Shown here one piece after another: positions 938-63,091 of a stretch of DNA of 64,000 bases. The notes under the pieces are model-generated. The model searched no databases and had not been told where the DNA came from. It was given only the letters and a program-made list of their open reading frames with translations. The stretch is from an uncultured Candidatus Saccharimonas sp. Its GTDB lineage: Bacteria; Patescibacteriota; Saccharimonadia; Saccharimonadales; AWTP1-31. The position numbers and the translations under genes were made by a program. The stretch covers positions 4,600 through 68,599 of the forward strand of contig CALRBE010000004.1 of NCBI GenBank assembly GCA_943354005.1, given 5' to 3'. Positions within the stretch are counted from its first letter, which is position 1; every line of letters begins with the position of its first letter.

Positions 938-1103
938 GATTTAGACCTACCGAAACCCTATTATTTAATTACTTGTCTACATTAAGATAAGTACGAAAGG
1001 GTGCTTATTCTATGGAATGGTGAGCTTGATGGTCTATAACCGTTTCGACCCATAACTGTCATAGAGCATAAAAATCCTTAAACTTTAATGGTATTATTAA
1101 GCT

Positions 1104-1556
1104 ATGAATAAAACTTCAAATGCTCAATATAACAGTAGTCAGTTCTCACCACTTAAAGACGGGTATAAACTCACCTATACAGAAAAAGACAACAGATTAA
1201 AGCTAGTCTACAAGGATGGATCCATCATATTTGATGTTAGTTTAGATGAAGTCGAAGGTATTTATAAAATGTATACTTTCCTGATCATAAAACTAAAGGA
1301 CAATACTAGGCACTTCATAAGCTTTGGCATTATTCTTAATTCAACCAAAGATATAAGAAGTCTTGATTTAACCGACACGAGTTATAGTGACGCAATGGAT
1401 GAATGGGTTAAATTACTAATATCCAAAGGAGTTAAGTTAAAATTGTCAACAAGTATAAGAATCCTATATTTCATACTATATTTCTGTGTTGCTAACTTTG
1501 TTCTACTGATAATTTTACGGTTAATACTTTTAATAGTGAAATTATCAAGTTCTTAA
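1104..1556 (+). CDS. Hypothetical protein with hydrophobic C-terminal anchor
   Basis: 150-aa ORF that is visibly more AT-rich than its neighbours. The C-terminal ~40 aa are strongly hydrophobic (ILYFILYFCVANFVLLIILRLILLIV). A TATTAT box lies 6 nt upstream of the ATG. I recognise no family. Confidence 0.45.
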   Translation: MNKTSNAQYNSSQFSPLKDGYKLTYTEKDNRLKLVYKDGSIIFDVSLDEVEGIYKMYTFLIIKLKDNTRHFISFGIILNSTKDIRSLDLTDTSYSDAMDEWVKLLISKGVKLKLSTSIRILYFILYFCVANFVLLIILRLILLIVKLSSS

Positions 1557-1608
1557 ACAGTAATGATCCAGTAACGTGAATGCTTACTGGACTTTAAATC
1601 AGAATATT

Positions 1609-1632
1609 TGGCTTGGGCGGAGGGATTCGAAC
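1609..1632 (-). other. Orphan tRNA 3'-end fragment (T-loop, T-stem 3' strand, acceptor 3' strand, CCA)
   Basis: The minus strand reads GTTCGAATCCCTCCGCCCAAGCCA. It matches the 3' end of the tRNA-Gln at 2554-2577 at 21 of 24 positions. No D arm, anticodon arm or 5' acceptor strand can be found upstream. Confidence 0.6.
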
Positions 1633-1744
1633 TACTATCATGAACTAACAACTAAGAGTCTCGTACCGTAAATTTGTCTAAAATTACTATATATAATTAG
1701 AATATAGACAATGGGATTCTAGTAACTAAAAGAGCTGCCGAAAT

Positions 1745-2497
1745 TTATTCAAAGTAACGGCTGGTTGTTGGCGCGGATAACCTCTTTCGCCACTCATCTT
1801 GATCTAGCGGTATAGTTGTTTCAACTGTAAGATGTTCTGGTGATACGGTGCCGGGGATGTAGAGACCCTCAAAGCCACCCTGTATAACACTCGGTAGTGC
1901 AAAGATGGTACAGTCCTTACCAGCTTCACGCAAACGACCAACTGCATCAGATAGGCGGTTGTTAATAATTTCAGGTGCGAAAGGGTCGGCCTTGAGTACA
2001 GTAATGCTTGCATCAGGAGTTAGGTAAGCTTCATGAAACCTATCTGTAATTGCTTGAGCTTGATTACGATCGTTTGTTGAGAACCCTTCGTTTAAGGCGA
2101 CATATCTCATTTCCTGGGCAAGTATCCAGGCTCGTTCAGGTACGCCATAACCAATATTATATCTGTCGCCAAACATACCTGGTGTGTAAAAGAATACACC
2201 ACGCTCGCGGTCATTACGTGTACCATTGACGTATATATCGAACATTCCGCTAACACCAGGCTTGCCACGTGTACGAAGTAGGTTACGTGCTAAAACTAGG
2301 TCTTCTTCCGTAATACTAGAAGAGTCACCATTCAGTCCCTCTTCTATAATCTGAGGTACTAAGCTGCTATGGGTGTTGTGTAGCAAATCAACAGAAGCGT
2401 AAATTTCTACTAATTCAGGCCAGTCATCAAATAACTCCGTAATTTCTGGAACAATTTGGTCTCTTTGTCGTTCAAAAGCTGCTTCGGGTGAAATCAT
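1745..2497 (-). CDS. Hypothetical protein (250 aa), no recognisable family
   Basis: Clean ORF that looks more GC-rich than the adjacent 1104-1556 ORF. An extended -10 (TGtTATAAT, complement of 2504-2512) ends 6 nt before the ATG. Confidence 0.6.
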   Translation of the reverse strand: MISPEAAFERQRDQIVPEITELFDDWPELVEIYASVDLLHNTHSSLVPQIIEEGLNGDSSSITEEDLVLARNLLRTRGKPGVSGMFDIYVNGTRNDRERGVFFYTPGMFGDRYNIGYGVPERAWILAQEMRYVALNEGFSTNDRNQAQAITDRFHEAYLTPDASITVLKADPFAPEIINNRLSDAVGRLREAGKDCTIFALPSVIQGGFEGLYIPGTVSPEHLTVETTIPLDQDEWRKRLSAPTTSRYFE

Positions 2498-2553
2498 AAT
2501 AACATTATAACATATAAACTACTAATTGTAAATAGATTATTAGTTAGCGATGA

Positions 2554-2627: not shown

Positions 2628-2633
2628 ACGAAC

Positions 2634-5776: not shown

Positions 5777-6901
5777 ATGAAACGTAAAAGTTTAATAATA
5801 GCTGGAATAAGTGGAATTTTGTCACTGTTCATTTTTGGAGGTGTGGCGCGCGCACAAGCTGTCCGATCAGCCGAAAGCGTAACTGTACCCAAAAACCAAG
5901 TCATTAATTCCATGCTTTATAGCTCAGGAACTGATATAAAAATAGAGGGTACAATCAACGGTGATCTTTTCTGTTTTGGCACAAACATTGTAATCTCCGG
6001 TATAGTTCTTGGGGATATCTATTGTTTTGGTCAAAATATTACGTTTACCGGTAACGCTAGCGGAAGCGTACGCCTAGCGGGGCAAGACATTACATATTCC
6101 GGTAAATCACTTGGAAGCGTAAGCCTTTTAGCATCAAAAGTTACAGTACAGAATGGTACAGATATCGGTAGAGACCTACTTGTTGCTGCAAGCAACACAA
6201 CAATTGATGGTAAGATTGGTCGCGATGCGTCTATTGCGGCTACCAACGCAACAATAACAGGTACTATCGGACGCGATCTAGGTGGAAGATATCAATTCCT
6301 GACACTTGCACCTTCCGCTAACGTTAAGGGAAGTATCGACTATACGAGTCAAAACGACCTTCTAAAATCTTCAAGTACACAAGTCGGTGGTAACATAAGT
6401 CGTCGCGACGTCGCTGCTAAAAGCGGTACACAGCTTCCAAGCATATATGTCTTTGGGGCCTATATCTTCATTTCTTTGTTAATCGTGTCTCTAACTGTTG
6501 TACTTATTTTTCCTAAGCTATTTACTAAAACTACAAAAGAAATTTCGGAGCGAACTGGGGCAACAATTGGTAAAGGTTTACTGACACTATTCATTGCACC
6601 TATTATATTAATTGTTATCTCTGCAACTCTTGTAGGTATACCACTTGCTGGATTAGCATTTGCTGCATGGCTAGTCGTATTGTTCATGAGCGGCCCAATA
6701 TTTGCTTACTACGTAGGCCATAGAGTTACTAAAGGTAAGCATTCACCTTTCGTTACTATGCTCGTAGGTTCTGTAATCGTATTGCTCCTATACCTAATCC
6801 CTATAGTAAATGCAATTATTGGTCTGGTTGTAGGAATTGTTGGATCTGGAGCAGCCGTCGGTGCCCTTAAGCATCACAAAGCTGTATCTAAGAAAGCTTA
6901 A
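5777..6901 (+). CDS. Secreted or membrane protein with bactofilin-like beta-helical repeats and a C-terminal polytopic membrane domain
   Basis: SD AAAGGGG lies upstream. Signal-peptide-like N-terminus ends ...GGVARA-QA. About 200 aa of G-x-I/V-x-G-D/S repeats follow (GTINGDLFCFGTNIVISGIVLGDIYCFGQNITFTGNASGSVRLAG...), typical of polymer-forming or bactofilin-like beta-helices. The C-terminal third contains 4-5 TM helices. Confidence 0.6.
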   Translation: MKRKSLIIAGISGILSLFIFGGVARAQAVRSAESVTVPKNQVINSMLYSSGTDIKIEGTINGDLFCFGTNIVISGIVLGDIYCFGQNITFTGNASGSVRLAGQDITYSGKSLGSVSLLASKVTVQNGTDIGRDLLVAASNTTIDGKIGRDASIAATNATITGTIGRDLGGRYQFLTLAPSANVKGSIDYTSQNDLLKSSSTQVGGNISRRDVAAKSGTQLPSIYVFGAYIFISLLIVSLTVVLIFPKLFTKTTKEISERTGATIGKGLLTLFIAPIILIVISATLVGIPLAGLAFAAWLVVLFMSGPIFAYYVGHRVTKGKHSPFVTMLVGSVIVLLLYLIPIVNAIIGLVVGIVGSGAAVGALKHHKAVSKKA

Positions 6902-6911
6902 AATATAGCTT

Positions 6912-7541
6912 ATGTCTTCAGTAGGTATGCGGACACGAAGACCACTTATTATTGGTCTTACCGTGTCCGCTTTGATCCTTGCGCTAAGTACATATATAGC
7001 TTCAATCCAGAAGTTACCCTTATGGGAACAACAACTATTTACAAAAATATTCAATCTACCTAGTAGTTTATATAATATATCGACATTCATAACACTATTC
7101 GGTAGTGGCTGGATGGTTATTGGATTAGTGTTTACTCTTATAATAATTAAAAGACGCGAACTTGCTCTCCAAGTTTTTATTTTGAGTAGTATTACCTTTC
7201 TGATAGTACAATTCATGAAGGATACTATCGCTCGACCACGTCCAGTTGGACTCGTCGCTGACCTGACTCTCAAACAATATGAAGCTACTGGATTTGGATT
7301 TCCTTCCGGTCACTCTGCACTCAGTATGGTCTGCGCATTAGTAATATTGCCTTACGTGTCTCGCCCATGGAAACTAATTATAATAATTGGAGTAATCCTA
7401 GTCGGACTGTCTAGAATTTATCTTGGAGTACACGCACCTCTGGATGTTATCGGAGGCTGGAGCTTAGCTATTGTTATATGGTACATATCTAAACTATTTT
7501 TTTCAAAGAATATCCTTGCAAAAAATTCTCGAAAAACATAA
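6912..7541 (+). CDS. PAP2-family phosphatase (undecaprenyl-diphosphatase or lipid phosphatase type)
   Basis: All three PAP2 motifs are present: KDTIARPRP, PSGHS, SRIYLGVHAPLDV. The protein is polytopic. Confidence 0.8.
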   Translation: MSSVGMRTRRPLIIGLTVSALILALSTYIASIQKLPLWEQQLFTKIFNLPSSLYNISTFITLFGSGWMVIGLVFTLIIIKRRELALQVFILSSITFLIVQFMKDTIARPRPVGLVADLTLKQYEATGFGFPSGHSALSMVCALVILPYVSRPWKLIIIIGVILVGLSRIYLGVHAPLDVIGGWSLAIVIWYISKLFFSKNILAKNSRKT

Positions 7542-8433: not shown

Positions 8434-8479
8434 GAATAAGCGCGTTTATCTATAAACTCCTATAGGCTATACTAGTACT

Positions 8480-9700
8480 ATGGAAATAGTTTTGGTCATC
8501 TTCGGGATATTAAATTGCGCACTTATTGTCGTATTGCTTCTAAAAAAGAACAGTTCAGGCTTAGATACCGCGATGCGCGACGAGTTTATGCGTAATCGTA
8601 AAGAATTCCATGATGCTAATAAAGAGTTACGCCAAGAGCTTACTGTTGGATTAACTCAGACAAAAGAATCGCTCGATAAAAGACTTGAACAACTACGTGA
8701 TAAGAATGACGAAAAACTCGAGCTGATTCGAAAGACTGTTGAAACAAGACTAGTGAGCTTACAAAAAGATAATGCCGAAAAACTTGAGAAGATGCGCGAG
8801 ACTGTTGATGAGAAATTGCAAAGTACACTCGAAAAACGCTTATCACAAAGCTTCAAGGTCGTAAGTGAACGTCTTGAAATGGTGCATAAAGGACTTGGAG
8901 AGATGCAGAATCTAGCATCTGATGTCAGTGACTTTAAGCGTGTTCTTACAAACGTTAAGACGCGCGGTACATGGGGCGAAGTCCAGCTCGAAAATCTACT
9001 AGAGCAAGTGTTCATTAAGGACCATTATGACAAGCAAGTTAAGCTTAGCTCTACTAGTAACGACACTGTTGATTTTGCAATTAGACTACCGGATAAGAGT
9101 TCACCTAAAGGTTTCATCTATCTTCCAATAGATGCTAAATTCCCACTCGAGGATTATCAAAGGCTTGTTGCAGCTCAAGAGAAGGGCGACCAAGTGTTAA
9201 CTGTCGCAGCACAAAAGGCCATGGTGAATAGGGTTAAGGCAGAGGCAAAATCAATTAAAGCCAAGTACATACAACCACCAAAGACTACCGACTTTGCAGT
9301 ATTGTACGTTCCAACAGAAGGAATGTTTGCTGAAATACTAAGAGAACCAGGCTTGTTTGAAAAATTACAATCTGAATATAGAGTTACTATTGCAGGACCT
9401 ACAACAATCGCAGCCATACTAAGTAGCTACCAGCTTGGGTTTAGGACATTAGCTATCGCCGAACAGACTGGACAAGCTTGGGAACTCTTAACTGGTATCA
9501 AGGGTGAATTCACGAAGTTTGGAGATCTTCTTGATAAGACACGAGAAAAGCTAGTTCAAGCAACCAAGAACATCGATTCAGCATCATCTAAAAGTAGAAC
9601 AATTGAACGTAAGCTTGATAAGGTACAGCAACTTACCGATAAGGCTAGTTCTTCAGTAGACGACGTAGCAGTAAAACAACTTGATATTCTAGAGCCGTAA
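8480..9700 (+). CDS. rmuC: DNA recombination protein RmuC
   Basis: N-terminal TM, a long coiled coil, then the RmuC nuclease-like core (TRGTWGEVQLENLLEQ, DFAIRLPD, IDAKFPLEDY). Confidence 0.85.
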   Translation: MEIVLVIFGILNCALIVVLLLKKNSSGLDTAMRDEFMRNRKEFHDANKELRQELTVGLTQTKESLDKRLEQLRDKNDEKLELIRKTVETRLVSLQKDNAEKLEKMRETVDEKLQSTLEKRLSQSFKVVSERLEMVHKGLGEMQNLASDVSDFKRVLTNVKTRGTWGEVQLENLLEQVFIKDHYDKQVKLSSTSNDTVDFAIRLPDKSSPKGFIYLPIDAKFPLEDYQRLVAAQEKGDQVLTVAAQKAMVNRVKAEAKSIKAKYIQPPKTTDFAVLYVPTEGMFAEILREPGLFEKLQSEYRVTIAGPTTIAAILSSYQLGFRTLAIAEQTGQAWELLTGIKGEFTKFGDLLDKTREKLVQATKNIDSASSKSRTIERKLDKVQQLTDKASSSVDDVAVKQLDILEP

Positions 9701-10202: not shown

Positions 10203-10324
10203 CGTTAATCTCCTTATTACAAATTCTTAATTACGGTACCTGTAGTATACCAGCAATGGCCTGCATTATTTGCGCCTCTTTGTGTGTGGTTACCAAAGCC
10301 CAAGACTGCTATAATAAACCTAAT

Positions 10325-11356
10325 ATGTCTACCTCTACTATTTCAATTGAACAGGCTAAAGATGCGCTCAAAGCTGAGTTCGAAACGCTTGAAATAAAAA
10401 AACAAATCCTAAGAAGTAAAACTCTAGAATCTCTGATGGCTAATTTAAAGATCCTACCTAACGAAGAAAAGGCTGAATATGGAAGAGATATTAATGCTCT
10501 AAAGGGCGAGATTGTATCTTGGGTTAACGACGCAGAGTCTGAGGATCAGGAACTTGGACCAATTGATGTTACTGCACCATTTGATATAAATACACCTGAG
10601 AATAAAAGACCCGCTTTACTATCGACAAAACTTGGCAGTAAACACCCTATTATGATTGAACTAGAATATATCGTCGATATCTTTAGCCGTATGGGATTTG
10701 AAGCAGTCGAATCACGACAAATCGATGACGACTATCATATGTTCGAGTCACTTAATTTCCCCGAAGGCCATCCAGCCCGAGATGACTATGACACATTTAT
10801 GACAACCGAAGGACTCATAGCTCCGGCACATACCAGTACTATGCAGAACCGTGTACTACGGCAATATAAAGATAATCTAACAAATGGTTTACCAATCGCT
10901 GTCGTTATTCCCGATCGTGTCTTTCGTAACGAAGATGTTGATGTTACCCACGAACATACCTTTCACCAGTTTGAAGGAGTTTATATCGATAAAGATGTGA
11001 ACGTCGGTAACCTCATAGCAACTCTCAAGGCATTCATGAGTGAGTACTTTGGACAAGAGATTAAAGCTAAATTACAGCCATTCTATTTTCCATTCACTGA
11101 GCCAAGTTTTGAATTTGCTATAGAAAGACCAGAATCACTAAGAAAAGGCGATACAGAAGCAGATATGTGGCTTGAGCTTCTTGGTTGCGGAATGATTCAC
11201 CCTAATGTTCTTAAAGCTGCAGACATAGACCCCACTGTTTATACAGGATTTGCATGGGGTTGTGGTATCGAACGGCTTGTTATGATGAAGAATAGTATTG
11301 AAGACATCAGGCATTTCCAGTCTGGTAAATTAGACTTCTTGAGGCAATTTTCATGA
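10325..11356 (+). CDS. pheS: Phenylalanine--tRNA ligase alpha subunit
   Basis: Class II aaRS motifs are present (HPARD, FRNE, GFAWGCGIERL). The ORF-track start at 10187 overlaps yajQ. ATG 10325 gives a typical length of about 343 aa and is preceded by TGcTATAAT. Confidence 0.95.
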   Translation: MSTSTISIEQAKDALKAEFETLEIKKQILRSKTLESLMANLKILPNEEKAEYGRDINALKGEIVSWVNDAESEDQELGPIDVTAPFDINTPENKRPALLSTKLGSKHPIMIELEYIVDIFSRMGFEAVESRQIDDDYHMFESLNFPEGHPARDDYDTFMTTEGLIAPAHTSTMQNRVLRQYKDNLTNGLPIAVVIPDRVFRNEDVDVTHEHTFHQFEGVYIDKDVNVGNLIATLKAFMSEYFGQEIKAKLQPFYFPFTEPSFEFAIERPESLRKGDTEADMWLELLGCGMIHPNVLKAADIDPTVYTGFAWGCGIERLVMMKNSIEDIRHFQSGKLDFLRQFS

Positions 11357-19415: not shown

Positions 19416-19527
19416 ATTACATATATTGTATCAAACAAAACCAACTAGATTAGCGCGACCTCAATAAAAAATAATTAATAGGTTAGACTTGGTGTATTAT
19501 AGATAGTAAGCAAAGGAGAAATATAAT

Positions 19528-21652: not shown

Positions 21653-21694
21653 TCTTTGTTATGACAGCGCTTACGCTTATAATAGACAGTAACT

Positions 21695-36096: not shown

Positions 36097-36135
36097 AACC
36101 ATAGATTTTTAATCGTATGCTGGTAGAATAAGCTT

Positions 36136-37026: not shown

Positions 37027-37053
37027 CGGTAACTTTTCAGTATAATATTCAAT

Positions 37054-37715: not shown

Positions 37716-37788
37716 TTATTGTTAATTTCCTGATGTATAATTTGATTATTCTTTATGGTTCGCGGGACGACCTTTATACTAGAAGGTA

Positions 37789-42441: not shown

Positions 42442-42481
42442 TGTAACCAGTATAATCAGAATATAACAAAAACGCTATAGC

Positions 42482-42982: not shown

Positions 42983-43078
42983 AGATTAATACTACACACA
43001 GAAGCTTTTTGTTCATAATTAAATAATATGTCATTATATAATTTCAGCGTTTTAACTGCTTGTGGTTAAATAGATGGG

Positions 43079-45820: not shown

Positions 45821-45928
45821 ATGATTATTATACCTGATGAGCGTATAAAAATGCATGAAAGATGTATTTTACTTTTATTCTAAATAGACTTGACTCCACC
45901 CCTGGTAGTAGTGTAGAATTTAATGATT

Positions 45929-46369
45929 ATGCCATCAATAACTAAACAAATCGAAGATAAATACAAGAAACACGCCGTAGTTGACGTCCGACCTGGTGAT
46001 ACTGTTAAAGTTCATCAAAAGATTAAAGAAGGCGCTAAAGAGCGTGTTCAGATCTTCGAAGGTCTCGTAATCCGTGTATCTAAAAAGGGAAGTCTTTCTT
46101 CTACTATTGTCGTAAGACGTGTAGCTGGCGGACTAGGCGTTGAGAAATCATACCTTCTACATTCACCTCTAGTAGTTAAGATCGAGGTTACTAAGCGTAG
46201 TAAAGTACGTCGTAACTATCTTACTTACATGCGTGCTCGTACTGGTAAAGCAGCTCGACTTACTGGCGTTGCATTTGATAGTGCAATCAACGATCTTCCT
46301 GAAGTGCCTAAAGTTGAAGCTCCTGTAGAGGAATCTGCTGAAACAGAAGAAAAAGCTCCAGAAGCATAA
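45929..46369 (+). CDS. rplS: 50S ribosomal protein L19 with acidic C-terminal extension
   Basis: RPGDTVKVHQKIKEGAKERVQIFEGLVI is the L19 signature region. ATG 45929 is preferred; ATG 45923 is possible. Confidence 0.9.
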   Translation: MPSITKQIEDKYKKHAVVDVRPGDTVKVHQKIKEGAKERVQIFEGLVIRVSKKGSLSSTIVVRRVAGGLGVEKSYLLHSPLVVKIEVTKRSKVRRNYLTYMRARTGKAARLTGVAFDSAINDLPEVPKVEAPVEESAETEEKAPEA

Positions 46370-46395
46370 AAAAACAATATACTTTTGATTTATAA

Positions 46396-46424
46396 AATAC
46401 CGCCTAAATATGGCGGTATTTTTG
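46396..46424 (+). terminator. Rho-independent terminator after rplS
   Basis: AATACCGCC (46396-46404) pairs perfectly with GGCGGTATT (46412-46420). The loop is TAAATAT, and the T run continues to 46423. Confidence 0.8.
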
Positions 46425-46439
46425 TTAGAATATAGTTAT

Positions 46440-47012
46440 ATGAAAACAATTGGTGTTGATGAGGTTGGTAGGGGCTGTCTTGCAGGGCCTGTTGCGGCGG
46501 CAGCAGTATTGCTCGACGATAGCTCTATTTCAACATTAGCTGGTCTGCATCTTACTGATTCAAAAGCGATGACTAAGCTACAGCGCGAAAAGGCCTATGC
46601 AGTTATCACGAAAACTGCGCTTGCTTATGGTGTCGGCTGGGTCTTTCCTGCAGAGATTGATAAGAACGGACTCACTGAAGCGGTACGTAGTGCAATGCAG
46701 CAAGCAGTAAGCGCAATCACAAAAGATTATGATGAAATTATTATTGATGGAAATTATAATTTTCTTAAAGATAATCCTAAAACAAGAACACTAATTAAAG
46801 CAGACCTTACTGAAATTTCGGTGAGCGCAGCAAGTGTAGTTGCTAAAGTTGAGCGTGACAGATATATGAAAGAACAATCTCTGATTCACGTAGGATATGG
46901 ATTTGATGCGCACGTTGGATACGGCACCTTGGCACATATGAAAGCACTTCGGGAACTTGGACCCTGCATTTTACATAGAAGAAGTGTAAAACCTGTAGCT
47001 GCCCTAATCTAA
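46440..47012 (+). CDS. rnhB: Ribonuclease HII
   Basis: GVDEVGRGCLAGPV catalytic motif and DSK. The ORF-track start at 46410 lies inside the rplS terminator, so ATG 46440 is preferred. Confidence 0.9.
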   Translation: MKTIGVDEVGRGCLAGPVAAAAVLLDDSSISTLAGLHLTDSKAMTKLQREKAYAVITKTALAYGVGWVFPAEIDKNGLTEAVRSAMQQAVSAITKDYDEIIIDGNYNFLKDNPKTRTLIKADLTEISVSAASVVAKVERDRYMKEQSLIHVGYGFDAHVGYGTLAHMKALRELGPCILHRRSVKPVAALI

Positions 47013-49564
47013 GAGAAGTATTGCTGTAATGACTTAAGATCGCGTTTTTTCCATGCAGACTGCCATTCAATTGTCTCGATACCTTGGTTGTAGGAGCGTA
47101 CAAAAGCAGGGGACAGGACGCCACTAAAGAACTTCTTATATTCTTTAAGGAATTCAATATCGCTTGTACTTCGTGCCGCAAACATAGGTAATCGATAGAA
47201 AGATAGATCATCTCCAATATTCTTTTCAAGCCAAGACCAGTTATCTTTCATCCATTCCCACGTTTCTTTACGAGAAAACCGATTACTGAAGCTATACACT
47301 AGCCAATAAGCTACGTCTTGAAGTCTTACATCGTCAGATGTGATCAGACTTAGGGCTTTCTTGTTTAAGGTTGGCTGCTTAAAGCTACATAGTGCAGCAC
47401 AGATATTTAGTCTCTCTTCACTTGAAGTAGTCTTATTGTGCATCTTAAGTAGTTTGGTGAATTCAGCTTCGCCCCCATGGCGCGCAGCAGTTACGTACAC
47501 AAGACCTCGAATATCGGGACTGATGTTTTCGGATTGATTAGAAAGAGTGCATTTACGGAAAAGTTCTAACGAGTGATCAACGACACTCGGCTCTTCGCTA
47601 ATTGCAGCCAATGAAAGTATTGTTGGACGCAAGAGGGAATCAAAATATGTCTCTTTGTCACGAGGCTCCCAGCCAAGACGTGTGAGTTCTTTGGCAATTA
47701 ATTCTCTTACGTATGGTTTCATTCCTTCACGAATAGTTTCGTCGTCCATAACAGCCCGCATACCGCCTAGAAGGCCAGCTATTATATCCCATACAGCATT
47801 ATTAGACTCATGAGCGTAATTTTTAAGAAATGTTAATACATCCGTAGTGGGCATGTAGGAAGCTTTAGACGCTTCAGTTAGATCAGCTAATATTGATAGT
47901 CTATCTAGCGGCTTGAGTGACCCTTTAGATATCGCTGTGCCTAAGACGTCTAATACTTTTGCGTCGTATATGGTGCGATAAAAACCACTGCCTCCAACGT
48001 TTAACCTTATGTCAGAATCTGAATTAACTGAAAAAGTATCAAGTGCCTTTGTCATGGAATCAGGCATTTCCTTGTTGGTCGTAAGGAGCGGAACGGGCCA
48101 GGTAGACGTATCTTTTTTAATATTAGCGTGGTTCATGAAAAAACGATTCTGAGTAATTGTAAGACCATTATCTCCATCAGTTACTTTAAGTATTGGATAT
48201 CCACTTTGGCTTGTCCAGGTGTCCATGAATGCCTTAACTGGTTTACTAGAAGCTTTTTCAAGTGAGTTCCATAGATCACGAGTTCGCGTATTTTTGTAGG
48301 AGTGATCTTTTAAGTAGGATCGCAGCCCTTTTTGGAAGTCCTTCTCTCCTAAGTAGTGATAGAGCATATGAATTACACTTGCGCCCTTACTGTAGCTAAT
48401 AGCATCGAAGATAGTCCGTATTTCATCCGGATGCTTTACGGTAACTTCAACGGGATGAGTATGTTCGAGAGCATCTAATTTTAGTGCTTGTTGTTGTTCG
48501 TCAACAGAGAATTGGGTCCACATATCCCATTCCGGAAATAGTTTATCGACAGCTAGGTACTCAAACCAGGACGCAAATCCTTCGTTAAGCCAAAGGTCAG
48601 TCCACCACTCCATGGTTACTAGGTTGCCGAACCATTGGTGAGTTAACTCATGGGCAACGACCATTGCTACATATTGTTTTGTAGGTAGGCTAGTATTTTT
48701 AGGATCAACCAATAGAGCTTGTTCACGGTAGGTTATACATCCCCAATTCTCCATGGCTCCAGACGCAAAATCCGGTAGTGCTACCATGTCGCACTTAGCT
48801 AGAGGATAGTCAATATCAAAGTATTCTGAATAATAGTCTAGGCACTTTACGGCCACATCAAGTGCAAATTTTGTATATTGAACATTATCGGGTGTGGCAT
48901 ATGTCCTGACAACGACACCTCGTTTAGTTTTCGATTCAAGGTAACCCATGTCGCCGTATACGAAAGCTAGTAGGTATGTACTCATTATTGGAGTCTGATC
49001 AAAGGTTGAACGAATATGTCCATCGATCTCTAGTTCAGAAACTACTGGTGTATTCGCAATTACTACTTCGCCTCTAGGAGTAGTCAGGCTTAAGTCAAAT
49101 GTTGCTTTCGCTTCAGGTTCATCTATACAAGGAAATACTTCTCTTGCATGATGACTTTCAAACTGTGTCGCTATTAGTTTCTTTTCACCTTCTTTATCCT
49201 TAAAGAAACATGGGTAGACACCGTTCATGGCTCGAGTAATTACACCGCTGAACTCAAGCCTAACCTCATAAATTCCTGCTTTCATCGGACCAGAAGAATG
49301 AAGGCGAACCTCATCATATGATTTTTGCAGATTCATTCGGTCTACTTCAACACTAGTTCGCTCGTTTTTATATATATGAGTGAGCGAATATGATTTTATT
49401 TTCAAACCTTTTTGATGCAGAGTAATTCTTTGTGAGGGAGGACCAGTTTTTTTACCAGTAATAACAACTGTTCCGGAAAATGTCATCAAATCTTTATTAG
49501 GTACAATATCTAAAATGTAATTGCTGGGTCTAAATTGTTTATAAAGTCTTATTACCTTAGCCAT
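47009..49564 (-). CDS. pepN: M1-family aminopeptidase N
   Basis: GAMENWG exopeptidase motif, and the HELTHQWFGN...WLNEG zinc site. The start is ambiguous: ATG 49564 or GTG 49582. Confidence 0.9.
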   Translation of the reverse strand: MAKVIRLYKQFRPSNYILDIVPNKDLMTFSGTVVITGKKTGPPSQRITLHQKGLKIKSYSLTHIYKNERTSVEVDRMNLQKSYDEVRLHSSGPMKAGIYEVRLEFSGVITRAMNGVYPCFFKDKEGEKKLIATQFESHHAREVFPCIDEPEAKATFDLSLTTPRGEVVIANTPVVSELEIDGHIRSTFDQTPIMSTYLLAFVYGDMGYLESKTKRGVVVRTYATPDNVQYTKFALDVAVKCLDYYSEYFDIDYPLAKCDMVALPDFASGAMENWGCITYREQALLVDPKNTSLPTKQYVAMVVAHELTHQWFGNLVTMEWWTDLWLNEGFASWFEYLAVDKLFPEWDMWTQFSVDEQQQALKLDALEHTHPVEVTVKHPDEIRTIFDAISYSKGASVIHMLYHYLGEKDFQKGLRSYLKDHSYKNTRTRDLWNSLEKASSKPVKAFMDTWTSQSGYPILKVTDGDNGLTITQNRFFMNHANIKKDTSTWPVPLLTTNKEMPDSMTKALDTFSVNSDSDIRLNVGGSGFYRTIYDAKVLDVLGTAISKGSLKPLDRLSILADLTEASKASYMPTTDVLTFLKNYAHESNNAVWDIIAGLLGGMRAVMDDETIREGMKPYVRELIAKELTRLGWEPRDKETYFDSLLRPTILSLAAISEEPSVVDHSLELFRKCTLSNQSENISPDIRGLVYVTAARHGGEAEFTKLLKMHNKTTSSEERLNICAALCSFKQPTLNKKALSLITSDDVRLQDVAYWLVYSFSNRFSRKETWEWMKDNWSWLEKNIGDDLSFYRLPMFAARSTSDIEFLKEYKKFFSGVLSPAFVRSYNQGIETIEWQSAWKKRDLKSLQQYFS

Positions 49565-49616
49565 AGTACATAATTTTATCACAGGTCACTTGTTTAACGG
49601 GCCAATTTGATCCTCG

Positions 49617-53434: not shown

Positions 53435-53481
53435 CAATAGCATTGTAGCTACAAAACTTAATACACAGTATAATAATAGAC

Positions 53482-54468
53482 ATGGCTCTCAGTAGAAAAA
53501 CAAAAATATTTCAGACTACACTATCCGGTATTTTCATAACCATTGCTGCACTAGCAATTTTTCAAAGACAAAATATCCAAGACTGGTGGGTTCTTCGTAG
53601 CTACCAGCCATCTGCATCGATATCACAACTAGCCCAAGATACGACCATGACCGATAAAAGTAAAAGAGCATTCTATCTTAACGATCCGAAGGTTCAAGAA
53701 AAGGCTGCCTTCTATGAAAGCTGTAAATTCGGTGAGAATACAATTGTACTGGGTTGTTACATTAAAAACGAAGGCATATACCTACTTAAAGTTAATGATC
53801 CCCGATTAGCCGGTGTTGAGCAAGTAACAGCAGCTCACGAAATGCTTCACGCAGCGTACGACCGTCTTGGAACAAGCGAAAAAGTAGATGTCGATAATCA
53901 GCTAAATGATTTCTACAATAATTTAAAAGATGCAGAGATACGATCCAAGATAGAATTATATAGAAAAAATGGAGCCGATATTACCAATGAACTGCATTCT
54001 ATACTCGGCACAGAAGTCGAGACGCTATCTCCAGCCTTAGAAAAATACTATTCTAAGTACTTTACACAGCGAAAGAAAGTGGTCGCGTACGCTTTGCAAT
54101 ATGAAGCAGAATTTATATCACGCAAGAATAAACTAATTGAATTAGATGCTAACCTTAAATCAATCGAAAAGCAGATTGTAGCAAACAATATTGAACTAGA
54201 GCAATTACAAAAGAGTATTAATGCTGAAAGTGATAGGCTGGATAGGCTACGCCGTTCAGGGCAGATCGAAGAATTTAATAACGCTGTTCCAGCATATAAT
54301 AGTCGCATCCCAGGATTCAGAGCACTCTATGCACAGACTGAAAACCTTGTGGCACAATATAAACAAGTACTTGATGAACGTAATAAAATAGCGATTGAAG
54401 CTCAAGAACTTAATAAAGCATTAGACAGTAGTATTCAGCCAAGCACTGATCCAATTCAGAATCTTTAA
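53482..54468 (+). CDS. Hypothetical membrane-anchored protein with HExxH motif and C-terminal coiled coil
   Basis: N-terminal TM (LSGIFITIAALAIF). VTAAHEMLHAAYD contains HExxH. The C-terminal ~130 aa have heptad-like, Leu/Glu/Lys/Gln-rich sequence. Confidence 0.55.
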   Translation: MALSRKTKIFQTTLSGIFITIAALAIFQRQNIQDWWVLRSYQPSASISQLAQDTTMTDKSKRAFYLNDPKVQEKAAFYESCKFGENTIVLGCYIKNEGIYLLKVNDPRLAGVEQVTAAHEMLHAAYDRLGTSEKVDVDNQLNDFYNNLKDAEIRSKIELYRKNGADITNELHSILGTEVETLSPALEKYYSKYFTQRKKVVAYALQYEAEFISRKNKLIELDANLKSIEKQIVANNIELEQLQKSINAESDRLDRLRRSGQIEEFNNAVPAYNSRIPGFRALYAQTENLVAQYKQVLDERNKIAIEAQELNKALDSSIQPSTDPIQNL

Positions 54469-54484
54469 TGATACACTAGACGTA

Positions 54485-55834
54485 ATGGGATCTAGAAAAA
54501 GTGTACAGTACGAGTGTAGTAGTTGTGGGGACATTTCATCTTCTTGGTCAGGAAAGTGTATGTCCTGTGGGGAATGGAATACCATAAGCGAACAACTGCT
54601 AGTTGAGAATATTGGCCAAGCTATTAAGCATGGTAAGCCAATTAAAACTACTCAACTTAAAAAAGCTAATAAAATTAAAAATGAACCACGTGTTACATCT
54701 TCTATCCCTGAAGTTGACGTGGTTCTTGGTGGAGGTTTTGTCGCAGGTAGCGTTACTCTAATTGCTGGCCAACCCGGCATTGGGAAAAGCACACTACTTT
54801 TACAGATCGCTAGCGCAGTTGGCGACAGCGTTCCAGTTTTATATGTTAGTGGTGAAGAATCTGTACATCAGCTTGCCTCACGTTCAGATAGATTAAAAAC
54901 CCGCGGTACATTTCTTGAAATTGCTTCTAGTGCAAGCGCTGACGACATCGCGTCTACTATTGCTAGCAAGAAATACAAACTTATAATCGTTGATTCAATT
55001 CAGACAATTTCAGTAGAAGGAGTTAGTTCTGCTCCTGGTTCTGTTAGCCAAATAACAAACAGTACTCATGTACTAAGTATAGTGGCTAAAAATACAAACA
55101 CTGCATTAATAATTGTTGGTCATGTTACAAAAGAAGGATCAATTGCTGGACCTAAAGTATTAGAGCACCTTGTTGACGTCGTATTGCAAATAGAAGGCGA
55201 TAGGTATGGAGGCTTCAAGGTACTGCGAGGAGTAAAGAATAGATATGGTTCAACTAATGAAGTAGGCATATTTGAAATGGTAGAATCTGGAATGCAACCA
55301 GTTAAGAATCCTTCCGCAGCATTGCTTGCTGAAAGACAAATAAGTGACGGCTCAGTAGTTCTGGCTACAATGGAAGGCTCCAGACCTCTTCTTGTAGAAG
55401 TTCAGGCCTTAGTAAATAAATCAAGCTATGGATACCCTAAGCGGGCCGCTAGTGGGATTGATTTAAACAGAGTTAACTTGCTCATTGCAATGCTCGAGCG
55501 TCGTACGAAATTAAATCTCGCTGAGCACGATATATATATTAATATTGTCGGAGGCATGAAGGTGAGTGAGCCTGCTGCAGATCTTGCCGTATGTATGGCG
55601 ATTGCCAGCGCGAGTAAAGGTCTTAAGCTCAAGAAAAATGCAGTAGTTTTCGGAGAACTAGGACTAAGCGGCGAAGTGCGTCACGTGCCATTCGTCGAAA
55701 AGCGTGTTCAAGAAGCAACTAAGCTGGGATTCGATGGCGCAATAGGCCCTAAAATTAGAACTGGCAAGAAGCCATCAGGTCTGCACGAAGTAATTGATAT
55801 ACGTTCGGCCCTTAATGGCTTCTTGGAATCCTAA
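54485..55834 (+). CDS. radA: DNA repair protein RadA/Sms
   Basis: Zinc finger CSSCGDISSSWSGKCMSCGEWNT, Walker A GQPGIGKST, KNRYG motif, Lon-like C-terminal domain. Confidence 0.95.
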   Translation: MGSRKSVQYECSSCGDISSSWSGKCMSCGEWNTISEQLLVENIGQAIKHGKPIKTTQLKKANKIKNEPRVTSSIPEVDVVLGGGFVAGSVTLIAGQPGIGKSTLLLQIASAVGDSVPVLYVSGEESVHQLASRSDRLKTRGTFLEIASSASADDIASTIASKKYKLIIVDSIQTISVEGVSSAPGSVSQITNSTHVLSIVAKNTNTALIIVGHVTKEGSIAGPKVLEHLVDVVLQIEGDRYGGFKVLRGVKNRYGSTNEVGIFEMVESGMQPVKNPSAALLAERQISDGSVVLATMEGSRPLLVEVQALVNKSSYGYPKRAASGIDLNRVNLLIAMLERRTKLNLAEHDIYINIVGGMKVSEPAADLAVCMAIASASKGLKLKKNAVVFGELGLSGEVRHVPFVEKRVQEATKLGFDGAIGPKIRTGKKPSGLHEVIDIRSALNGFLES

Positions 55835-58794: not shown

Positions 58795-58934
58795 TAGAAT
58801 GTAATTCGCTCCTTATGTAGTATTTATTATACCAAATTTTTCTAATTTCATAGGATAAAAATCGTTAGCATTATATTTGTATATAAACATTCATCTTACT
58901 ACCAACGACAATGGCTATAAGGTATACTTTTTGT

Positions 58935-60191
58935 ATGGTACAAGAATCACTCACGCAAGAGCTAATACGACGAGGCTTCGTTAATCAAACAACCTTCAAG
59001 TCAATGAAAGATCTCGACTCAACTAAGCGCACATTCTACTTCGGTGTAGATCCAAGCGCGGCTTCAATGACTATCGGCAACTTGGCAGGCATTATGATGG
59101 TTAGAACATTCATTCGACATGGACACAAGGCCATTCTATTGATTGGCGGAGCTACTGGTATGATTGGCGATCCTGACGGTAAAAACGAAGAAAGAGAGCT
59201 GAAGCCTCTAGAAGAAATAGAACAGAACAAAAAAAATATTGTAGATCAATATAAGATAATACTAGATGGCCTTGATTTCGAAGTTGTTGATAATTATTCC
59301 TGGTTCAAGGATATGAATTACCTAGATTTTTTGCGGGACATAGGTAAAAAGGTGCCTATGAGACAAATGCTTGGACGCGATTTTGTGAACAAGCGTTTAA
59401 GTGCAGACGGTATGGGAATTAGCTACGCTGAATTTTCATATGTCTTAGTGCAGGCCTATGATTTTCTTCATTTACATAAAGAAAAGGATGCAACTCTACA
59501 GATTTGTGGATCTGATCAGTGGGGAAATGCAATTGCTGGCGTTGATCTAATTAGACGAGTGACGGGTAACGAGACTCATGTTTGGTCAATACCGCTTGTA
59601 GTCAATAAATCCACGGGCGTTAAATTCGGTAAGAGTGAAGCTGGAGCTGTTTGGCTAAATCCTGACATGACAACACCATACCAGTTCTATCAATTCTGGC
59701 TTAATCTTGATGACGCCGGTGTTGATGACTACTTAAGAATCTATACTGAAATTAGTGAAGAAGACATAAGTGCGACAATGTCTGATTTTGAGAAAAATAA
59801 ATCACAAAGAGCCGCACAGAAGAAACTTGCATATGAAGCAACAAAATTAATTCATGGACTAAACACTGCAAATTCAGTACGCAAGATCAGCGAAGCCTTA
59901 TTCGGGAATACGTCTTTTAATTCTCTTGCTACCCAAGACTTTGTCCAGCTATCAAAAGAGTTAGGCTCTACAAAGGTTTCAAAAGACGATTCCCTAATTG
60001 ATATCCTCGTTGCTTCCCATCTCGCTTCATCTAAAGGTGATGCACGTCGTTTCATTGAAGCTAAGGCCGTTTATATCAATGGAACTCAGATAGGGCCCGA
60101 AAACACGACTCTCGATCCAGACACATTTATTGAGGGCTATATGTTGCTGAGAAGAGGAAAAAATAACCAAACTGTAATCTGCCTGCAATAA
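58935..60191 (+). CDS. tyrS: Tyrosine--tRNA ligase
   Basis: YFGVDPSAASMTIGNL (HIGH-type region), KFGKS (KMSKS region), and a C-terminal S4-like domain. ATG 58935 (MVQESLTQELIRRGF) fits the usual N-terminus and lies 6 nt after TATACT. Confidence 0.93.
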   Translation: MVQESLTQELIRRGFVNQTTFKSMKDLDSTKRTFYFGVDPSAASMTIGNLAGIMMVRTFIRHGHKAILLIGGATGMIGDPDGKNEERELKPLEEIEQNKKNIVDQYKIILDGLDFEVVDNYSWFKDMNYLDFLRDIGKKVPMRQMLGRDFVNKRLSADGMGISYAEFSYVLVQAYDFLHLHKEKDATLQICGSDQWGNAIAGVDLIRRVTGNETHVWSIPLVVNKSTGVKFGKSEAGAVWLNPDMTTPYQFYQFWLNLDDAGVDDYLRIYTEISEEDISATMSDFEKNKSQRAAQKKLAYEATKLIHGLNTANSVRKISEALFGNTSFNSLATQDFVQLSKELGSTKVSKDDSLIDILVASHLASSKGDARRFIEAKAVYINGTQIGPENTTLDPDTFIEGYMLLRRGKNNQTVICLQ

Positions 60192-60247
60192 TACTGTATA
60201 CTTCGCTGTGTAGAAAAAATAATAACAAGAACTAAACAAAGGTACAT

Positions 60248-61012
60248 ATGCCAACATCAAAGAAAAAAGCCGATCAATATAACGACCCTAAACATAACTA
60301 CCTAGACTATTGGAATGGCCGAGACTACGAAAATAAGTCAGAAATTATAGCTCTCAAAAGGTTCTTAAAAGGCAAACATTTCAAAAACGCTGCTGATATT
60401 GGCGGAGGCTTTGGAAGGCTTTGCATTTTCCTTAAGGAATACGCAGACAAAGTTACATTAGCAGAACCTAGTCAGCAACAACTTGACATCGGTAAGGACT
60501 ACCTTAAAGATCAACCAGATATAAAAATGGTACTAACTCAAGCTGATGATCTTAAATTTAAAGATAATTCACTTGATCTTATTACTATGATTCGCGTTAT
60601 GCACCATCTTCCAGATCCGACTAAAGAATTTTCTGAAATAAAGCGTGTTCTTACAGATGACGGTGTATTCATTTTAGAAATTGCCAATAACATTCACGCG
60701 CGAAACCGCATGAAGTACTTAATTAAAGGCGAAAAACTACCAACAAAACCCGTCGACATAAGATCAGATGCTAATCGCAACGACGAAGAAATTGCTTTTG
60801 TGAACCATAATCCAAAAACAGTCATCAAACAACTAGCTCACGAAGGATTAAAAGTTGAAAAAGTATTATCTGTTTCAAATCTTCGTAGTCAATCTCTTAA
60901 GAAAGTCTTACCTGAAAGTGCAATGTTAGCAATAGAAAATGTAATGCAACCAACACTTGCAAAAGCATATTTTGGTCCAAGTACCTTCCTTCTTATACGA
61001 AAAGCTGTATAG
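60248..61012 (+). CDS. Class I SAM-dependent methyltransferase
   Basis: Motif I ADIGGGFGRL, with acidic motif II and post-I regions. Substrate unknown. Confidence 0.75.
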   Translation: MPTSKKKADQYNDPKHNYLDYWNGRDYENKSEIIALKRFLKGKHFKNAADIGGGFGRLCIFLKEYADKVTLAEPSQQQLDIGKDYLKDQPDIKMVLTQADDLKFKDNSLDLITMIRVMHHLPDPTKEFSEIKRVLTDDGVFILEIANNIHARNRMKYLIKGEKLPTKPVDIRSDANRNDEEIAFVNHNPKTVIKQLAHEGLKVEKVLSVSNLRSQSLKKVLPESAMLAIENVMQPTLAKAYFGPSTFLLIRKAV

Positions 61013-61051
61013 GACTCGACCATACATCGTTCTCCAGGTAGTATTGGTAGC

Positions 61052-63091
61052 ATGAACGGATCTGATACTATTGGAATAATAAAGGGCATTGGGCCGGCAA
61101 CTGAGCCATTATTTCATAAAATTGGTATTGCCACACTTCAGGATCTAGTTGATTACTACCCAAGAAGCTATACTGACTTTTCTCATATTACTAATATTCG
61201 AGATATCGAACCCGGCTTAGTAACTATTAAGGCTAAAATAATAAAAGTTACTGGACGGTATGTCCGGCGAGGCATGCATATTACCGAAGCAGTAGCTGAA
61301 GATTCCACAGGCTCTATTCGTATGGTGTGGTTCAATCAGCCCTACAGAGCTACTTCAATTGGAAGTGAGGCTGACTACTTTATTTCCGGAATGTTTGAAC
61401 TTAGTCGACAAAAGATGGTTCTAATGAACCCTACCATTGAAAAGGTTTCCGATCTTCCTATAAGTACTGCCCGAATAGTTCCTCGCTATAAGGAAACTAA
61501 GGGTTTGAAATCAAATCAAATCCGTAAGTCAATTAGAGAAATACTGTCGTATATCAAGAGCGCTCCAGAAACTTTGCCTGAGTGGGTTTTGAATGAACAA
61601 GATCTGATCCCCAGGCACGAAGCTTTGCTTGCCATGCACTTTCCTGAAAGTTCAGAGCATCTCGACGAAGCAAAAAAAAGACTTGGCTTTGAAGAAGTAT
61701 TTGAGCTAGCTCTCGCCTCACTACTTAATAAGGACGAACACGATCAAGAGCATGCGCTCAATATAGTTTTTAATCAGAAACTAGCAAAGGATTTTGTTGG
61801 TCATCTCCCGTTTGAACTTACTCCTGACCAGAAAAGGGTTACTTGGCAGATTTATCAAGACATGGCATCTGCTAACTGCATGAATAGACTAATTGAAGGC
61901 GATGTTGGTTCTGGAAAAACGGTTGTTGCAACTATGGCTGCGTTGATGGTCTTAGCGCAGGAGCTTCAGGTTGCCTTTATGGCACCAACTGAGCTACTGG
62001 CTCGTCAGCATGCAGATACGATCCATTCGCTACTTAAACCTATTGGACTTGAGGGTTCTGTTGGCCTGCTTGTTGGTGGTATGTCGATGTCTCAGAAAAA
62101 AGTAATGCATGAAAGAATAGATTCAGGCGATGTACGCTTCATCATTGGAACACATGCCCTCATTCAAGATAAAGTTAATATGAAGAACCTGGGACTAGTT
62201 ATAATCGACGAGCAACATCGTTTCGGAGTCTCACAGCGTAAACAGCTACAAAAAAAGGCTGGACACATGCCTCATGTTCTATCCATGACCGCAACTCCTA
62301 TTCCTAGAACACTCGCTCTGACTCTTTACGGAGAACTAGATATCTCGATTATTTCATCAAAACCAAAAGGTAGAAAAGCAATTGAAACTAATATCATTTC
62401 ACCCAACTCTACAAAAACAATCCATGCATACATAGATTTAGAAATAGATAAAGGTAGACAAGTTTTTGTTGTATGCCCACTAATATCGGAATCAGAAGTA
62501 TTACAAACAGTCCATTCAGTTGGTAAGGTCCACAAGGAGCTTGCCGAGGGACCATTTAAACATCGTCGAGTAGGTCTGTTACATGGAAAATTACCAGCGG
62601 ATGAGAAAAATGCCATAATGCAGGACTTTATTGATAAAAAAATCGATATATTAGTGTCAACAACTGTAATTGAGGTAGGTGTCGATGTCCCTAACGCTAC
62701 TGTGATGCTAATTCAAAGTGCAGATCGTTTTGGACTAGCTCAACTACACCAATTGAGGGGACGTGTCGGACGTAGTGAACATCAAGGGTATTGTTACCTT
62801 GTGCTTAGTGACTCAAAAGCCCCTAGTAAAAGATTGCAAATATTTGAAAGAAACAATGATGGATTCAAGCTGGCTGAGCTAGATTTAGAGCTAAGAGGCC
62901 CGGGCGCCATCTACGGAACCTTCCAACACGGCCAACTTGACCTGAGGGTCGCTAAATTAACAGACGTGAAGCTCATTGAAGCAGCGCGACAATCGGCTCG
63001 TAGATTTATTAAAAAAGATGAAAAAATGGTATACTATAAGCATCTTGCAGACAGAGTGAATACGCTGAGATCTGTGACTAATCTAAATTAA
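61052..63091 (+). CDS. recG: ATP-dependent DNA helicase RecG
   Basis: Wedge/OB N-terminus. Helicase motifs GDVGSGKT, DEQHRFG, MTATPIPRT, QLHQLRGRVGR. Confidence 0.95.
   Translation: MNGSDTIGIIKGIGPATEPLFHKIGIATLQDLVDYYPRSYTDFSHITNIRDIEPGLVTIKAKIIKVTGRYVRRGMHITEAVAEDSTGSIRMVWFNQPYRATSIGSEADYFISGMFELSRQKMVLMNPTIEKVSDLPISTARIVPRYKETKGLKSNQIRKSIREILSYIKSAPETLPEWVLNEQDLIPRHEALLAMHFPESSEHLDEAKKRLGFEEVFELALASLLNKDEHDQEHALNIVFNQKLAKDFVGHLPFELTPDQKRVTWQIYQDMASANCMNRLIEGDVGSGKTVVATMAALMVLAQELQVAFMAPTELLARQHADTIHSLLKPIGLEGSVGLLVGGMSMSQKKVMHERIDSGDVRFIIGTHALIQDKVNMKNLGLVIIDEQHRFGVSQRKQLQKKAGHMPHVLSMTATPIPRTLALTLYGELDISIISSKPKGRKAIETNIISPNSTKTIHAYIDLEIDKGRQVFVVCPLISESEVLQTVHSVGKVHKELAEGPFKHRRVGLLHGKLPADEKNAIMQDFIDKKIDILVSTTVIEVGVDVPNATVMLIQSADRFGLAQLHQLRGRVGRSEHQGYCYLVLSDSKAPSKRLQIFERNNDGFKLAELDLELRGPGAIYGTFQHGQLDLRVAKLTDVKLIEAARQSARRFIKKDEKMVYYKHLADRVNTLRSVTNLN

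Follow-up and report, generated by a model that had tools for sequence, protein, structure and literature searches.

Do the messenger RNAs of an ultrasmall, genome-reduced bacterium of the Candidate Phyla Radiation (CPR) begin, at many genes, with the start codon itself? This question is raised by a stretch of 64,000 nt from an uncultured Candidatus Saccharimonas sp. (GenBank assembly GCA_943354005.1, contig CALRBE010000004.1, positions 4,600 to 68,599 of the forward strand), which we call the window and in whose own numbering all positions are given. It is very compact, has about 40% GC, and carries 58 genes defined by open reading frames (ORFs) and one tRNA-Gln. A preliminary description had listed 19 places where a TATAAT-like hexamer, the -10 box of a promoter, ends shortly before a start codon lacking a Shine-Dalgarno (SD) sequence, and had proposed leaderless mRNAs there. 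All 19 pairs are indeed present, with 6 nt between hexamer and start codon at 8 sites, 7 nt at 7 sites, 8 nt at 2 and 9 nt at 2. Over the window and about 160 related stretches of genome, a third or more of the genes have a -10 box so near that transcription should begin on the start codon or no more than about 4 nt from it. On the whole, the comparative evidence makes it quite probable that the Saccharibacterium of the window has a leaderless or near-leaderless architecture beside SD-led genes, of the type named group C below.

Hexamers beside start codons and their surroundings

In what follows, the gap is the number of nucleotides between the end of the hexamer and the start codon, a loose match is TANNNT with at least four of six positions agreeing with TATAAT, and a strict match has at least five. 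The enrichment counts use the longest-ORF ("naive") start for every gene, so that the choice of start is not circular. A loose hexamer at gap 6-9 precedes 15 of the 58 genes, compared with 140 of all 2142 ATGs in the window (6.5%; binomial p = 3e-6), and a strict one precedes 12 genes, compared with 57 ATGs (2.7%; p = 4e-8). When the 40 nt upstream of each gene are shuffled with dinucleotides preserved (57 genes, 2000 shuffles), loose matches number 6.9 ± 2.4 and strict matches 2.8 ± 1.7, with a strict maximum of 10. The excess of hexamers in the window is real, and at the loose threshold a handful of single sites could be chance.

Two independent sets, together 160 loci, were analysed in the same way. 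The first consists of 80 syntenic loci centred on dnaE, nearly all labelled Candidatus Saccharibacteria/Saccharimonadales metagenome-assembled genomes (MAGs), with 1443 genes; one locus has a dnaE 97% identical to that of the window, and the rest have 59-78%. The second consists of 80 metagenome contigs around pheS, with 717 genes. At gaps 6, 7, 8 and 9 the hexamer counts are 133, 92, 77 and 64 in the first set (baseline about 27 per position), and 56, 40, 33 and 33 in the second (baseline about 14). Both sets therefore have a sharp peak at gap 6-7, and the comparison with shuffled and intragenic controls, suggested at the outset as one way to check the pattern, gives a -10-like peak at this position in the window and the 160 loci. 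The pattern is found at 21-32% of genes in each GC class from 35% to 55% GC, so AT-richness is not its cause. The reverse test, over 2.4 Mb, gives 391 occurrences of TGnTAnnnT followed by 6 or 7 nt and ATG, and in 73% of these the ATG opens an ORF of 80 codons or more; for other spacings the corresponding figures are 128-171 and 23-38%. An artefact in which the TAA or TAG stop of the upstream gene supplies the TA of the hexamer was rejected, as it applies to only 3 of 357 co-directional sites, among them the window site 6912.

The flanks of the hexamer, which played no part in the selection, have the marks of a promoter. We aligned 501 gap-matched sites on the hexamer, inspected only the positions not used in selecting them, and took 32,237 hexamers as controls. 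The two extended -10 positions are T at a frequency of 0.53 and G at 0.58, compared with 0.27 for both at control hexamers. At -23 to -21, T, T and G reach 0.48, 0.42 and 0.32, which corresponds to the TTG of a -35 element with a 17-bp spacer. Of the -35 consensus (TTGACA at a spacer of 16-18 bp), the TTG is thus enriched weakly though in the right place; the element is clear at rplS and 2497, and a scan with the full consensus stays at chance level. The case therefore rests on the geometry of the -10 box and its TGn rather than on the weak -35 signal. Concerning the TGn, the preliminary description had marked four extended boxes, which are confirmed, and had overlooked three more; the total of 7 in 19 compares with about 7% expected.

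In the gap-6 class, the base at -1 is a pyrimidine in 79% of the sites and A in 6%, with the A of ATG as +1, that is, the pyrimidine(-1)/purine(+1) sequence signature. At gap 8-11 it is the 7th or 8th nucleotide after the hexamer that is enriched in A, from which leaders of 1-4 nt are predicted. The start codons of the strict gap 6-7 class (n = 233) are ATG in 94%, GTG in 6% and TTG in 0%, compared with 83%, 11% and 6% in SD-led genes. The restriction to ATG and GTG fits purine-initiated transcription together with the need of a leaderless mRNA for a start codon at its 5' end; mycobacterial leaderless mRNAs likewise begin with AUG or GUG.

A second mode of initiation had also been proposed, on the basis of AAGGAG before yajQ/DUF520 (10202, minus strand), ppa (19528), fba (25613) and nusA (49710), GAGGA before clpC (50960) and AGGAG before the transketolase C subunit (23940). 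All these motifs are present, and Pfam upholds the gene names of leaderless candidates and SD-led genes alike. Across the loci, SD 4-mers are most frequent 6-10 nt upstream, in a peak of their own, which shows that two modes coexist, and they dominate the genes less than 10 nt from the upstream gene. Among genes that close to a co-directional neighbour, 5% have the leaderless pattern and 58% an SD. The pattern occurs at 54-64% of genes behind spacers of 17-40 nt and at 40% of divergent genes; over spacers of 13-90 nt and divergent genes taken together it ranges over 40-64%, and at spacers of 9-12 nt it falls to 11%. Behind spacers of 17-40 nt, it is the 3' end of the upstream gene that contains the -35 region. 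Within the window, a rule-based classification assigns 20 genes to the leaderless type and 20 to the SD-led type; a further 17 show neither signal, and roughly half of these are tightly coupled to the upstream gene.

Orthologs and the choice of start codon

In the ortholog comparison, N-termini were aligned, and the geometry was counted as kept when an in-frame ATG or GTG within 8 codons had a -10-like hexamer at gap 6-9. Judged from these alignments, the geometry is conserved among orthologs of 60-80% protein identity whose flanks have diverged. The counts for each gene are in Table 1, and the ATG is aligned at offset 0 in most orthologs. At a matched internal control 40 codons downstream, the pattern occurs in 0-5%, as it does at the operon-internal genes gatA, the ORF at 34269, gatB, 37305 and pheT; it occurs in 0 of 34 orthologs of the SD-led nusA. 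For uvrB, upstream conservation is restricted to -16 to -7 (TTGnTACAAT), while rplS orthologs retain the -35 TTG and the -10 box as well as the gap of 9 nt. Pfam domains begin 2-13 residues from the proposed starts of rplS, rnhB, SpoU, recG, galU, GDPD and the M1 peptidase.

The box had further been credited with picking out the true start where the longest ORF is too long. Orthologs bear this out in part, for gatC, malic enzyme and rnhB; the rplS candidates differ by only 2 codons, and for tyrS the choice is a matter of geometry alone. Malic enzyme orthologs favour ATG 45820 over ATG 45856. In most orthologs of pheS the box lies at the aligned start, and with a start at 10187, that of the long ORF, the gene would share 16 nt with the divergent yajQ. 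M1 peptidase orthologs start 5-8 codons downstream of the position aligned with GTG 49582, and 26 of them do so at +6, which is ATG 49564. The longest-ORF start is probably wrong at six genes in all (10187, 49582, 45856, 46410, 58911 and 32531). Start calling by the longest ORF, or trained on SD sequences, in MAGs of Saccharibacteria and other CPR bacteria errs at several genes here, namely at pheS, the M1 peptidase, malic enzyme, rnhB and gatC and probably also, going by its geometry, at tyrS; the -10 rule corrects such starts.

Some genes change their mode among relatives. The dnaE gene is leaderless-looking in the window, and most relatives in the 80 dnaE loci have TATAAT, a leader of 20-30 nt and an SD of the form GAGGG or AGGGG; the leaderless-type arrangement of dnaE is specific to the lineage of the window. 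Conversely, yajQ and a NUDIX gene (15638) are SD-led in the window, and 22 of 45 and 9 of 11 of their orthologs, respectively, are leaderless-type. The initiation mode flips between such orthologs, which suggests that the two modes are interchangeable. In addition, the distance of 9-11 nt from box to ATG at pheS and rplS is kept across relatives, and pheS also keeps TAAT or TAATT directly before the ATG, suggesting conserved leaders of 2-4 nt at both genes rather than a 5'-terminal AUG.

Proposed architecture and competing explanations

Observation covers the motif and where it lies, the promoter-type flanks, the conservation in orthologs, the dependence on genomic context and the start-codon bias. 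The architecture that we propose for them would place a housekeeping promoter of the sigma-70 type directly against the coding sequence at about 20-23 of the 58 genes, which would be roughly half of the transcription units. Its usual form would be an extended -10 box (TGnTAtAAT) with a weak -35 element. RNA polymerase would initiate about 7 nt after the -10 box, which at gap 6-7 is the A of ATG or the G of GTG; at gap 8-11 it would initiate 1-4 nt upstream of the start codon, so that these sites probably have leaders of 1-4 nt rather than none. An mRNA without room for an SD would require an SD-independent, leaderless route of translation, which depends on a start codon at the 5' end. Operon-internal genes and a second set of first genes with leaders would use ordinary SDs (AAGGAG, GAGG, AGGGG) 6-10 nt upstream. 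The proposal of mRNAs beginning at or near the start codon thus gains backing from the position peak, the TGn, -35 and -1 flanks, the ortholog conservation, the scarcity in coupled genes and the absence of TTG.

Several points weigh against this architecture or narrow it. About 7 of 57 naive starts are expected to match by chance at the loose threshold. Generic scans for -35/-10 pairs and terminators over positions 1-20000 and 40001-60000 give no excess over shuffles (53 compared with 61.7, and 50 compared with 49.3), although such scans are uninformative because the -35 element is weak. At many boxes a co-directional gene ends 10-40 nt upstream and no terminator comes in between, and read-through transcripts that carry leaderless-type genes internally, with no SD, probably exist as well. 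The 16S rRNA 3' end, from which the anti-SD would be read, was sought in the window and all 160 loci, and none was found. The geometry is kept in only 15 of 78 orthologs of dnaE and 9 of 40 of the CAP gene, and the ortholog comparison leaves out seven of the listed sites (1104, 2497, 6912, 53482, 54485, 58935 and 61052). At 6912, the upstream gene ends in a TAA that supplies the TA of the hexamer, and only 10 nt separate the two genes. Finally, we infer the transcript 5' ends and the mechanism of translation from DNA alone.

The simplest rival is chance, since TANNNT-like hexamers are common in AT-rich spacers and some will land 6-9 nt before a start. The shuffles and the generic scans speak for it, and the sites 6912, 61052 and 42441 could individually be chance. 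As an account of the overall pattern, however, chance is extremely unlikely and already refuted: the peak at gap 6-7 is replicated in the two independent sets and persists at 50-55% GC, the unselected flanks carry the TGn, the -35 and the pyrimidine/purine signature, conservation in diverged orthologs is 65-98% compared with 0-5% at the internal controls, and the strict count in the window is 12 where 2.8 ± 1.7 are expected. Alternatively, the promoters may be real and the true start codons lie further downstream, so that the mRNAs have leaders and the apparent N-termini are untranslated. Some N-termini do shift by 1-3 codons among orthologs (rnhB and the gene at 37054), 6912 has a second ATG 5 codons on, and the present start assignments come from sequence rather than protein-level data. 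We hold this to be very unlikely, because the Pfam domains of seven genes begin so close to the proposed starts, most orthologs have the ATG at offset 0, no downstream candidate start shows an SD, and the tight coupling, at 6-7 nt, of the box to an ATG that opens an ORF (73%) would be left unexplained.

Two further rivals take account of read-through. According to one, the hexamer is a signal in the mRNA, either an A/U element of the S1 type or a Bacteroidota-like non-SD motif, on longer and often polycistronic transcripts. The many sites 10-40 nt behind a co-directional gene, where a terminator is undetected and upstream transcripts probably run through, accord with it, and the first 35 nt have slightly less structure in leaderless-type genes than in SD genes (-2.7 compared with -3.2 kcal/mol, p = 0.02). 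We regard it as quite unlikely nonetheless, given that invariant T, A and T positions, a TGn and a TTG exactly one 17-bp spacer upstream are what a sigma factor reads in DNA and not what a ribosome binds, that the pyrimidine/purine step lies at the expected transcription start site (TSS), that TTG starts are absent, and that the box of rnhB comes after a terminator. Moreover, tightly coupled internal genes carry SDs and hardly ever the motif, whereas the genomes of group B have one motif before first and internal genes alike (PMC6028130). According to the other, a mixed regime, the promoters fire and most protein is made from read-through polycistronic mRNAs by reinitiation or 70S scanning, so that leaderless mRNAs are minor and perhaps condition-specific. 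The compact spacers, the few terminators detectable between co-directional genes in the 160 loci and the window, and the flips of dnaE, yajQ and the NUDIX gene between modes agree with this regime. Yet the same architecture is found at 40% of divergent genes, which are out of reach of upstream co-directional transcripts, and at uvrB, malic enzyme and rmuC the box is so strongly conserved that selection on it is implied; we therefore consider the mixed regime unlikely.

Known systems and individual sites

Leaderless or near-leaderless initiation from a promoter set against the start codon is a known kind of organisation and not a new mechanism; the lineage is one for which we found no earlier report. 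A TANNNT about 10-12 nt upstream of the start is the recognised mark of leaderless genes ("TA-led genes"; Zheng et al. 2011, PMC3160421). In group C of GeneMarkS-2, operons have a Pribnow box 6-8 nt ahead of their first gene, SDs are used elsewhere, and 25-50% of transcripts are leaderless (PMC6028130). The group is typified by Mycobacterium, Streptomyces, Corynebacterium and Deinococcus, and orthologs switch mode over evolution (PMC6028130, PMC3160421); the lineages named as leaderless-rich are Actinobacteria, Deinococcus-Thermus and some Aquificae, Chloroflexi and Firmicutes (PMC6028130, PMC3160421). The window resembles these genomes in the spacing of the box before first genes, in the SDs of internal and other first genes, in the share of transcription units that would be leaderless (25-50%), in the TANNNT/TAtaaT consensus and in mode switching. 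It differs in its lineage, its GC content of about 40%, its extreme compaction and a -35 element inside the upstream gene, and the arrangement is known here from sequence. With the mapped leaderless transcriptomes of M. tuberculosis (Cortes 2013, PMC3898074), M. smegmatis (Shell 2015, PMC4633059) and Deinococcus deserti (de Groot 2014), the window shares a predicted 5'-terminal AUG or GUG, the absence of a 5' untranslated region (UTR), SD-led genes alongside, and tolerance of GTG (14 of 42 uvrB orthologs); those cases rest on differential RNA sequencing (dRNA-seq), ribosome profiling and proteomics, and that of the window on comparison of genomes.

The promoters are close to extended -10 promoters of sigma-70 or sigma-A, in that about half of the sites have a TG one base upstream, the -35 element is weak and the start lies about 7 nt on with the pyrimidine/purine step, the centring of the TSS 7 bp after the -10 box being a general rule (PMC12641261). 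Unlike in those promoters, the discriminator here runs straight into the start codon, and the initially transcribed region is coding. Two other organisations were considered and rejected. Group B, with the same non-SD motif before first and internal genes and SDs unused, does not fit an SD peak at 6-10 nt and a TA box that is rare at coupled genes. The archaeal-type group D has a TATA box about 26 nt upstream, and the hexamer profile here has no peak at 22-30 nt. Group B, seen in Bacteroidota, is alike in having many genes with no SD, and unlike in that its motif also precedes internal genes (PMC6028130), while here SDs are clearly enriched and the TA box is excluded from coupled genes. In Bacteroidota-type SD-independent initiation, the anti-SD is reported to be sequestered on the ribosome (PMC7797042). 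In a survey of CPR ribosomes, part of the Parcubacteria were the only ones reported to have lost the anti-SD (PMC9297842).

A search for literature linking leaderless mRNAs to Saccharibacteria, TM7, Patescibacteria or CPR returned only matches in reference lists, and a Saccharibacterium may stand unremarked in a group C table. A preprint on the TM7x transcriptome nowhere mentions promoters, UTRs or start codons. The only TSS set found for Saccharibacteria is that of N. lyticus, with 188 TSSs deduced from RNA-seq coverage and described as imprecise (PMC12641261).

Over the many genera and the range of 35-55% GC sampled here, it is somewhat probable that Saccharibacteria begin translating the first genes of their transcription units mainly in a leaderless or near-leaderless way. 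If true, a CPR lineage would be new to the published lists of leaderless-rich bacteria, which would gain a deep-branching, genome-reduced member whose orthologs are seen switching between leaderless and SD-led modes. The trait would go with genome compaction, the spacers having shrunk to little beyond TGnTAnnnT and 6 nt, with the -35 buried in the upstream gene. Should other CPR phyla share it, the question whether bacteria inherited leaderless initiation from their ancestors or evolved it repeatedly would be affected. Saccharibacteria can now be cultivated on host bacteria. A native expression cassette for Saccharibacteria may do without a 5' UTR, and an ATG 6-7 nt after TGnTATAAT is a testable design; for CPR bacteria, the practical use is in annotating start codons and designing constructs.

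The single sites (Table 1) are of unequal weight. We grade as strong 29436, 45820, 42982, 46440, 32549, 8480, 37054, 45929, 36136 and 10325. The sites 2497, 1104, 53482, 54485 and 58935 have good geometry and are judged from it alone, and 6912, 61052 (a 4/6 match), dnaE 37789 and CAP 42441 are weak. Four further sites were absent from the earlier list, namely 19415 and 49564 on the minus strand, 21695 with gap 11, and 43079 with TTAAAT.

Table 1. Candidate promoter/start-codon sites of the window, with one terminator; positions span from box to start codon, and the ortholog column gives those that keep the geometry
Position	Strand	Gene or product	Box	Gap (nt)	Start codon	Orthologs	Remarks
1089..1106	+	150-aa protein	TGgTATTAT	6	ATG 1104		no Pfam match; extended -10; T at -1
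2495..2532	-	250-aa protein	TTTACA, 17 nt, TGtTATAAT	6	ATG 2497		directly downstream of tRNA-Gln
6899..6914	+	PAP2 phosphatase	TAAAAT	7	ATG 6912		weak site
8468..8482	+	rmuC	TATACT	6	ATG 8480	11/11	box at aligned start
10307..10327	+	pheS	TGcTATAAT	9	ATG 10325	30/69 (gap 6-9)	most others gap 10-11; 2-4 nt leader likely
19413..19433	-	GDPD phosphodiesterase	TGaTACAAT	9	ATG 19415		added here
21678..21697	+	253-aa protein	TATAAT	11	ATG 21695		added here; about 4 nt leader likely
29420..29438	+	uvrB	TGtTATAAT	7	ATG 29436	42/43	39 with TGn; 14 use GTG
32537..32551	+	gatC	TATAAT	6	ATG 32549	40/62	first gene of gatCAB
36121..36138	+	galU	TGgTAGAAT	6	ATG 36136	25/53	20 with TGn
37041..37056	+	84-aa membrane protein	TATAAT	7	ATG 37054	19/24	
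37775..37791	+	dnaE	TATACT	8	ATG 37789	15/78	AAGG between box and ATG, only 2 nt from start
42439..42454	-	CAP-domain protein	TATACT	7	GTG 42441	9/40	N-terminus poorly conserved
42980..42994	-	SpoU/TrmH-like methylase	TAGTAT	6	ATG 42982	55/71	Pfam domain from residue 4
43066..43081	+	T2SSE/PilB-type ATPase	TTAAAT (degenerate -10)	7	ATG 43079	42/70	added here; in these orthologs the equivalent start has a regular TANNNT, at gap 6-9
45818..45832	-	malic enzyme	TATAAT	6	ATG 45820	31/34	25 at offset 0
45890..45931	+	rplS	TTGACT, 18 nt, TAGAAT	9	ATG 45929	31/59	about 2-3 nt leader likely
46394..46422	+	intrinsic terminator hairpin of rplS					-15.8 kcal/mol, z = -4.4, A- and U-tracts
46423..46442	+	rnhB	TGtTAGAAT	8	ATG 46440	41/54	26 with TGn
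49562..49581	-	M1 aminopeptidase	TGaTAAAAT	8	ATG 49564	37/43	added here
53469..53484	+	328-aa protein	TATAAT	7	ATG 53482		no Pfam match
54469..54487	+	radA	TGaTACACT	7	ATG 54485		
58923..58937	+	tyrS	TATACT	6	ATG 58935		
61039..61054	+	recG	TAGTAT	7	ATG 61052		weak hexamer

The promoter of 2497 is the best full match of the window (11/12 plus TG). It follows directly on a tRNA gene, as the tRNA-Gln (CTG; 2554-2627, minus strand) ends 21 nt upstream of the -35 of this promoter at 2504-2532. The rplS terminator ends 3 nt before the -10 hexamer of rnhB, directly before its TGn, which leaves 17 nt to the ATG. Two other genes (5740-5779 and 16120-16166) have TGcTATAAT about 20 nt upstream together with an AGGGG variant of the SD 5-6 nt before the ATG, and in the latter ATG 16164 rather than ATG 16140 is likely the start. 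Lastly, 6 of the 19 leaderless candidates are genes of DNA repair or replication (uvrB, radA, recG, rmuC, rnhB and dnaE).

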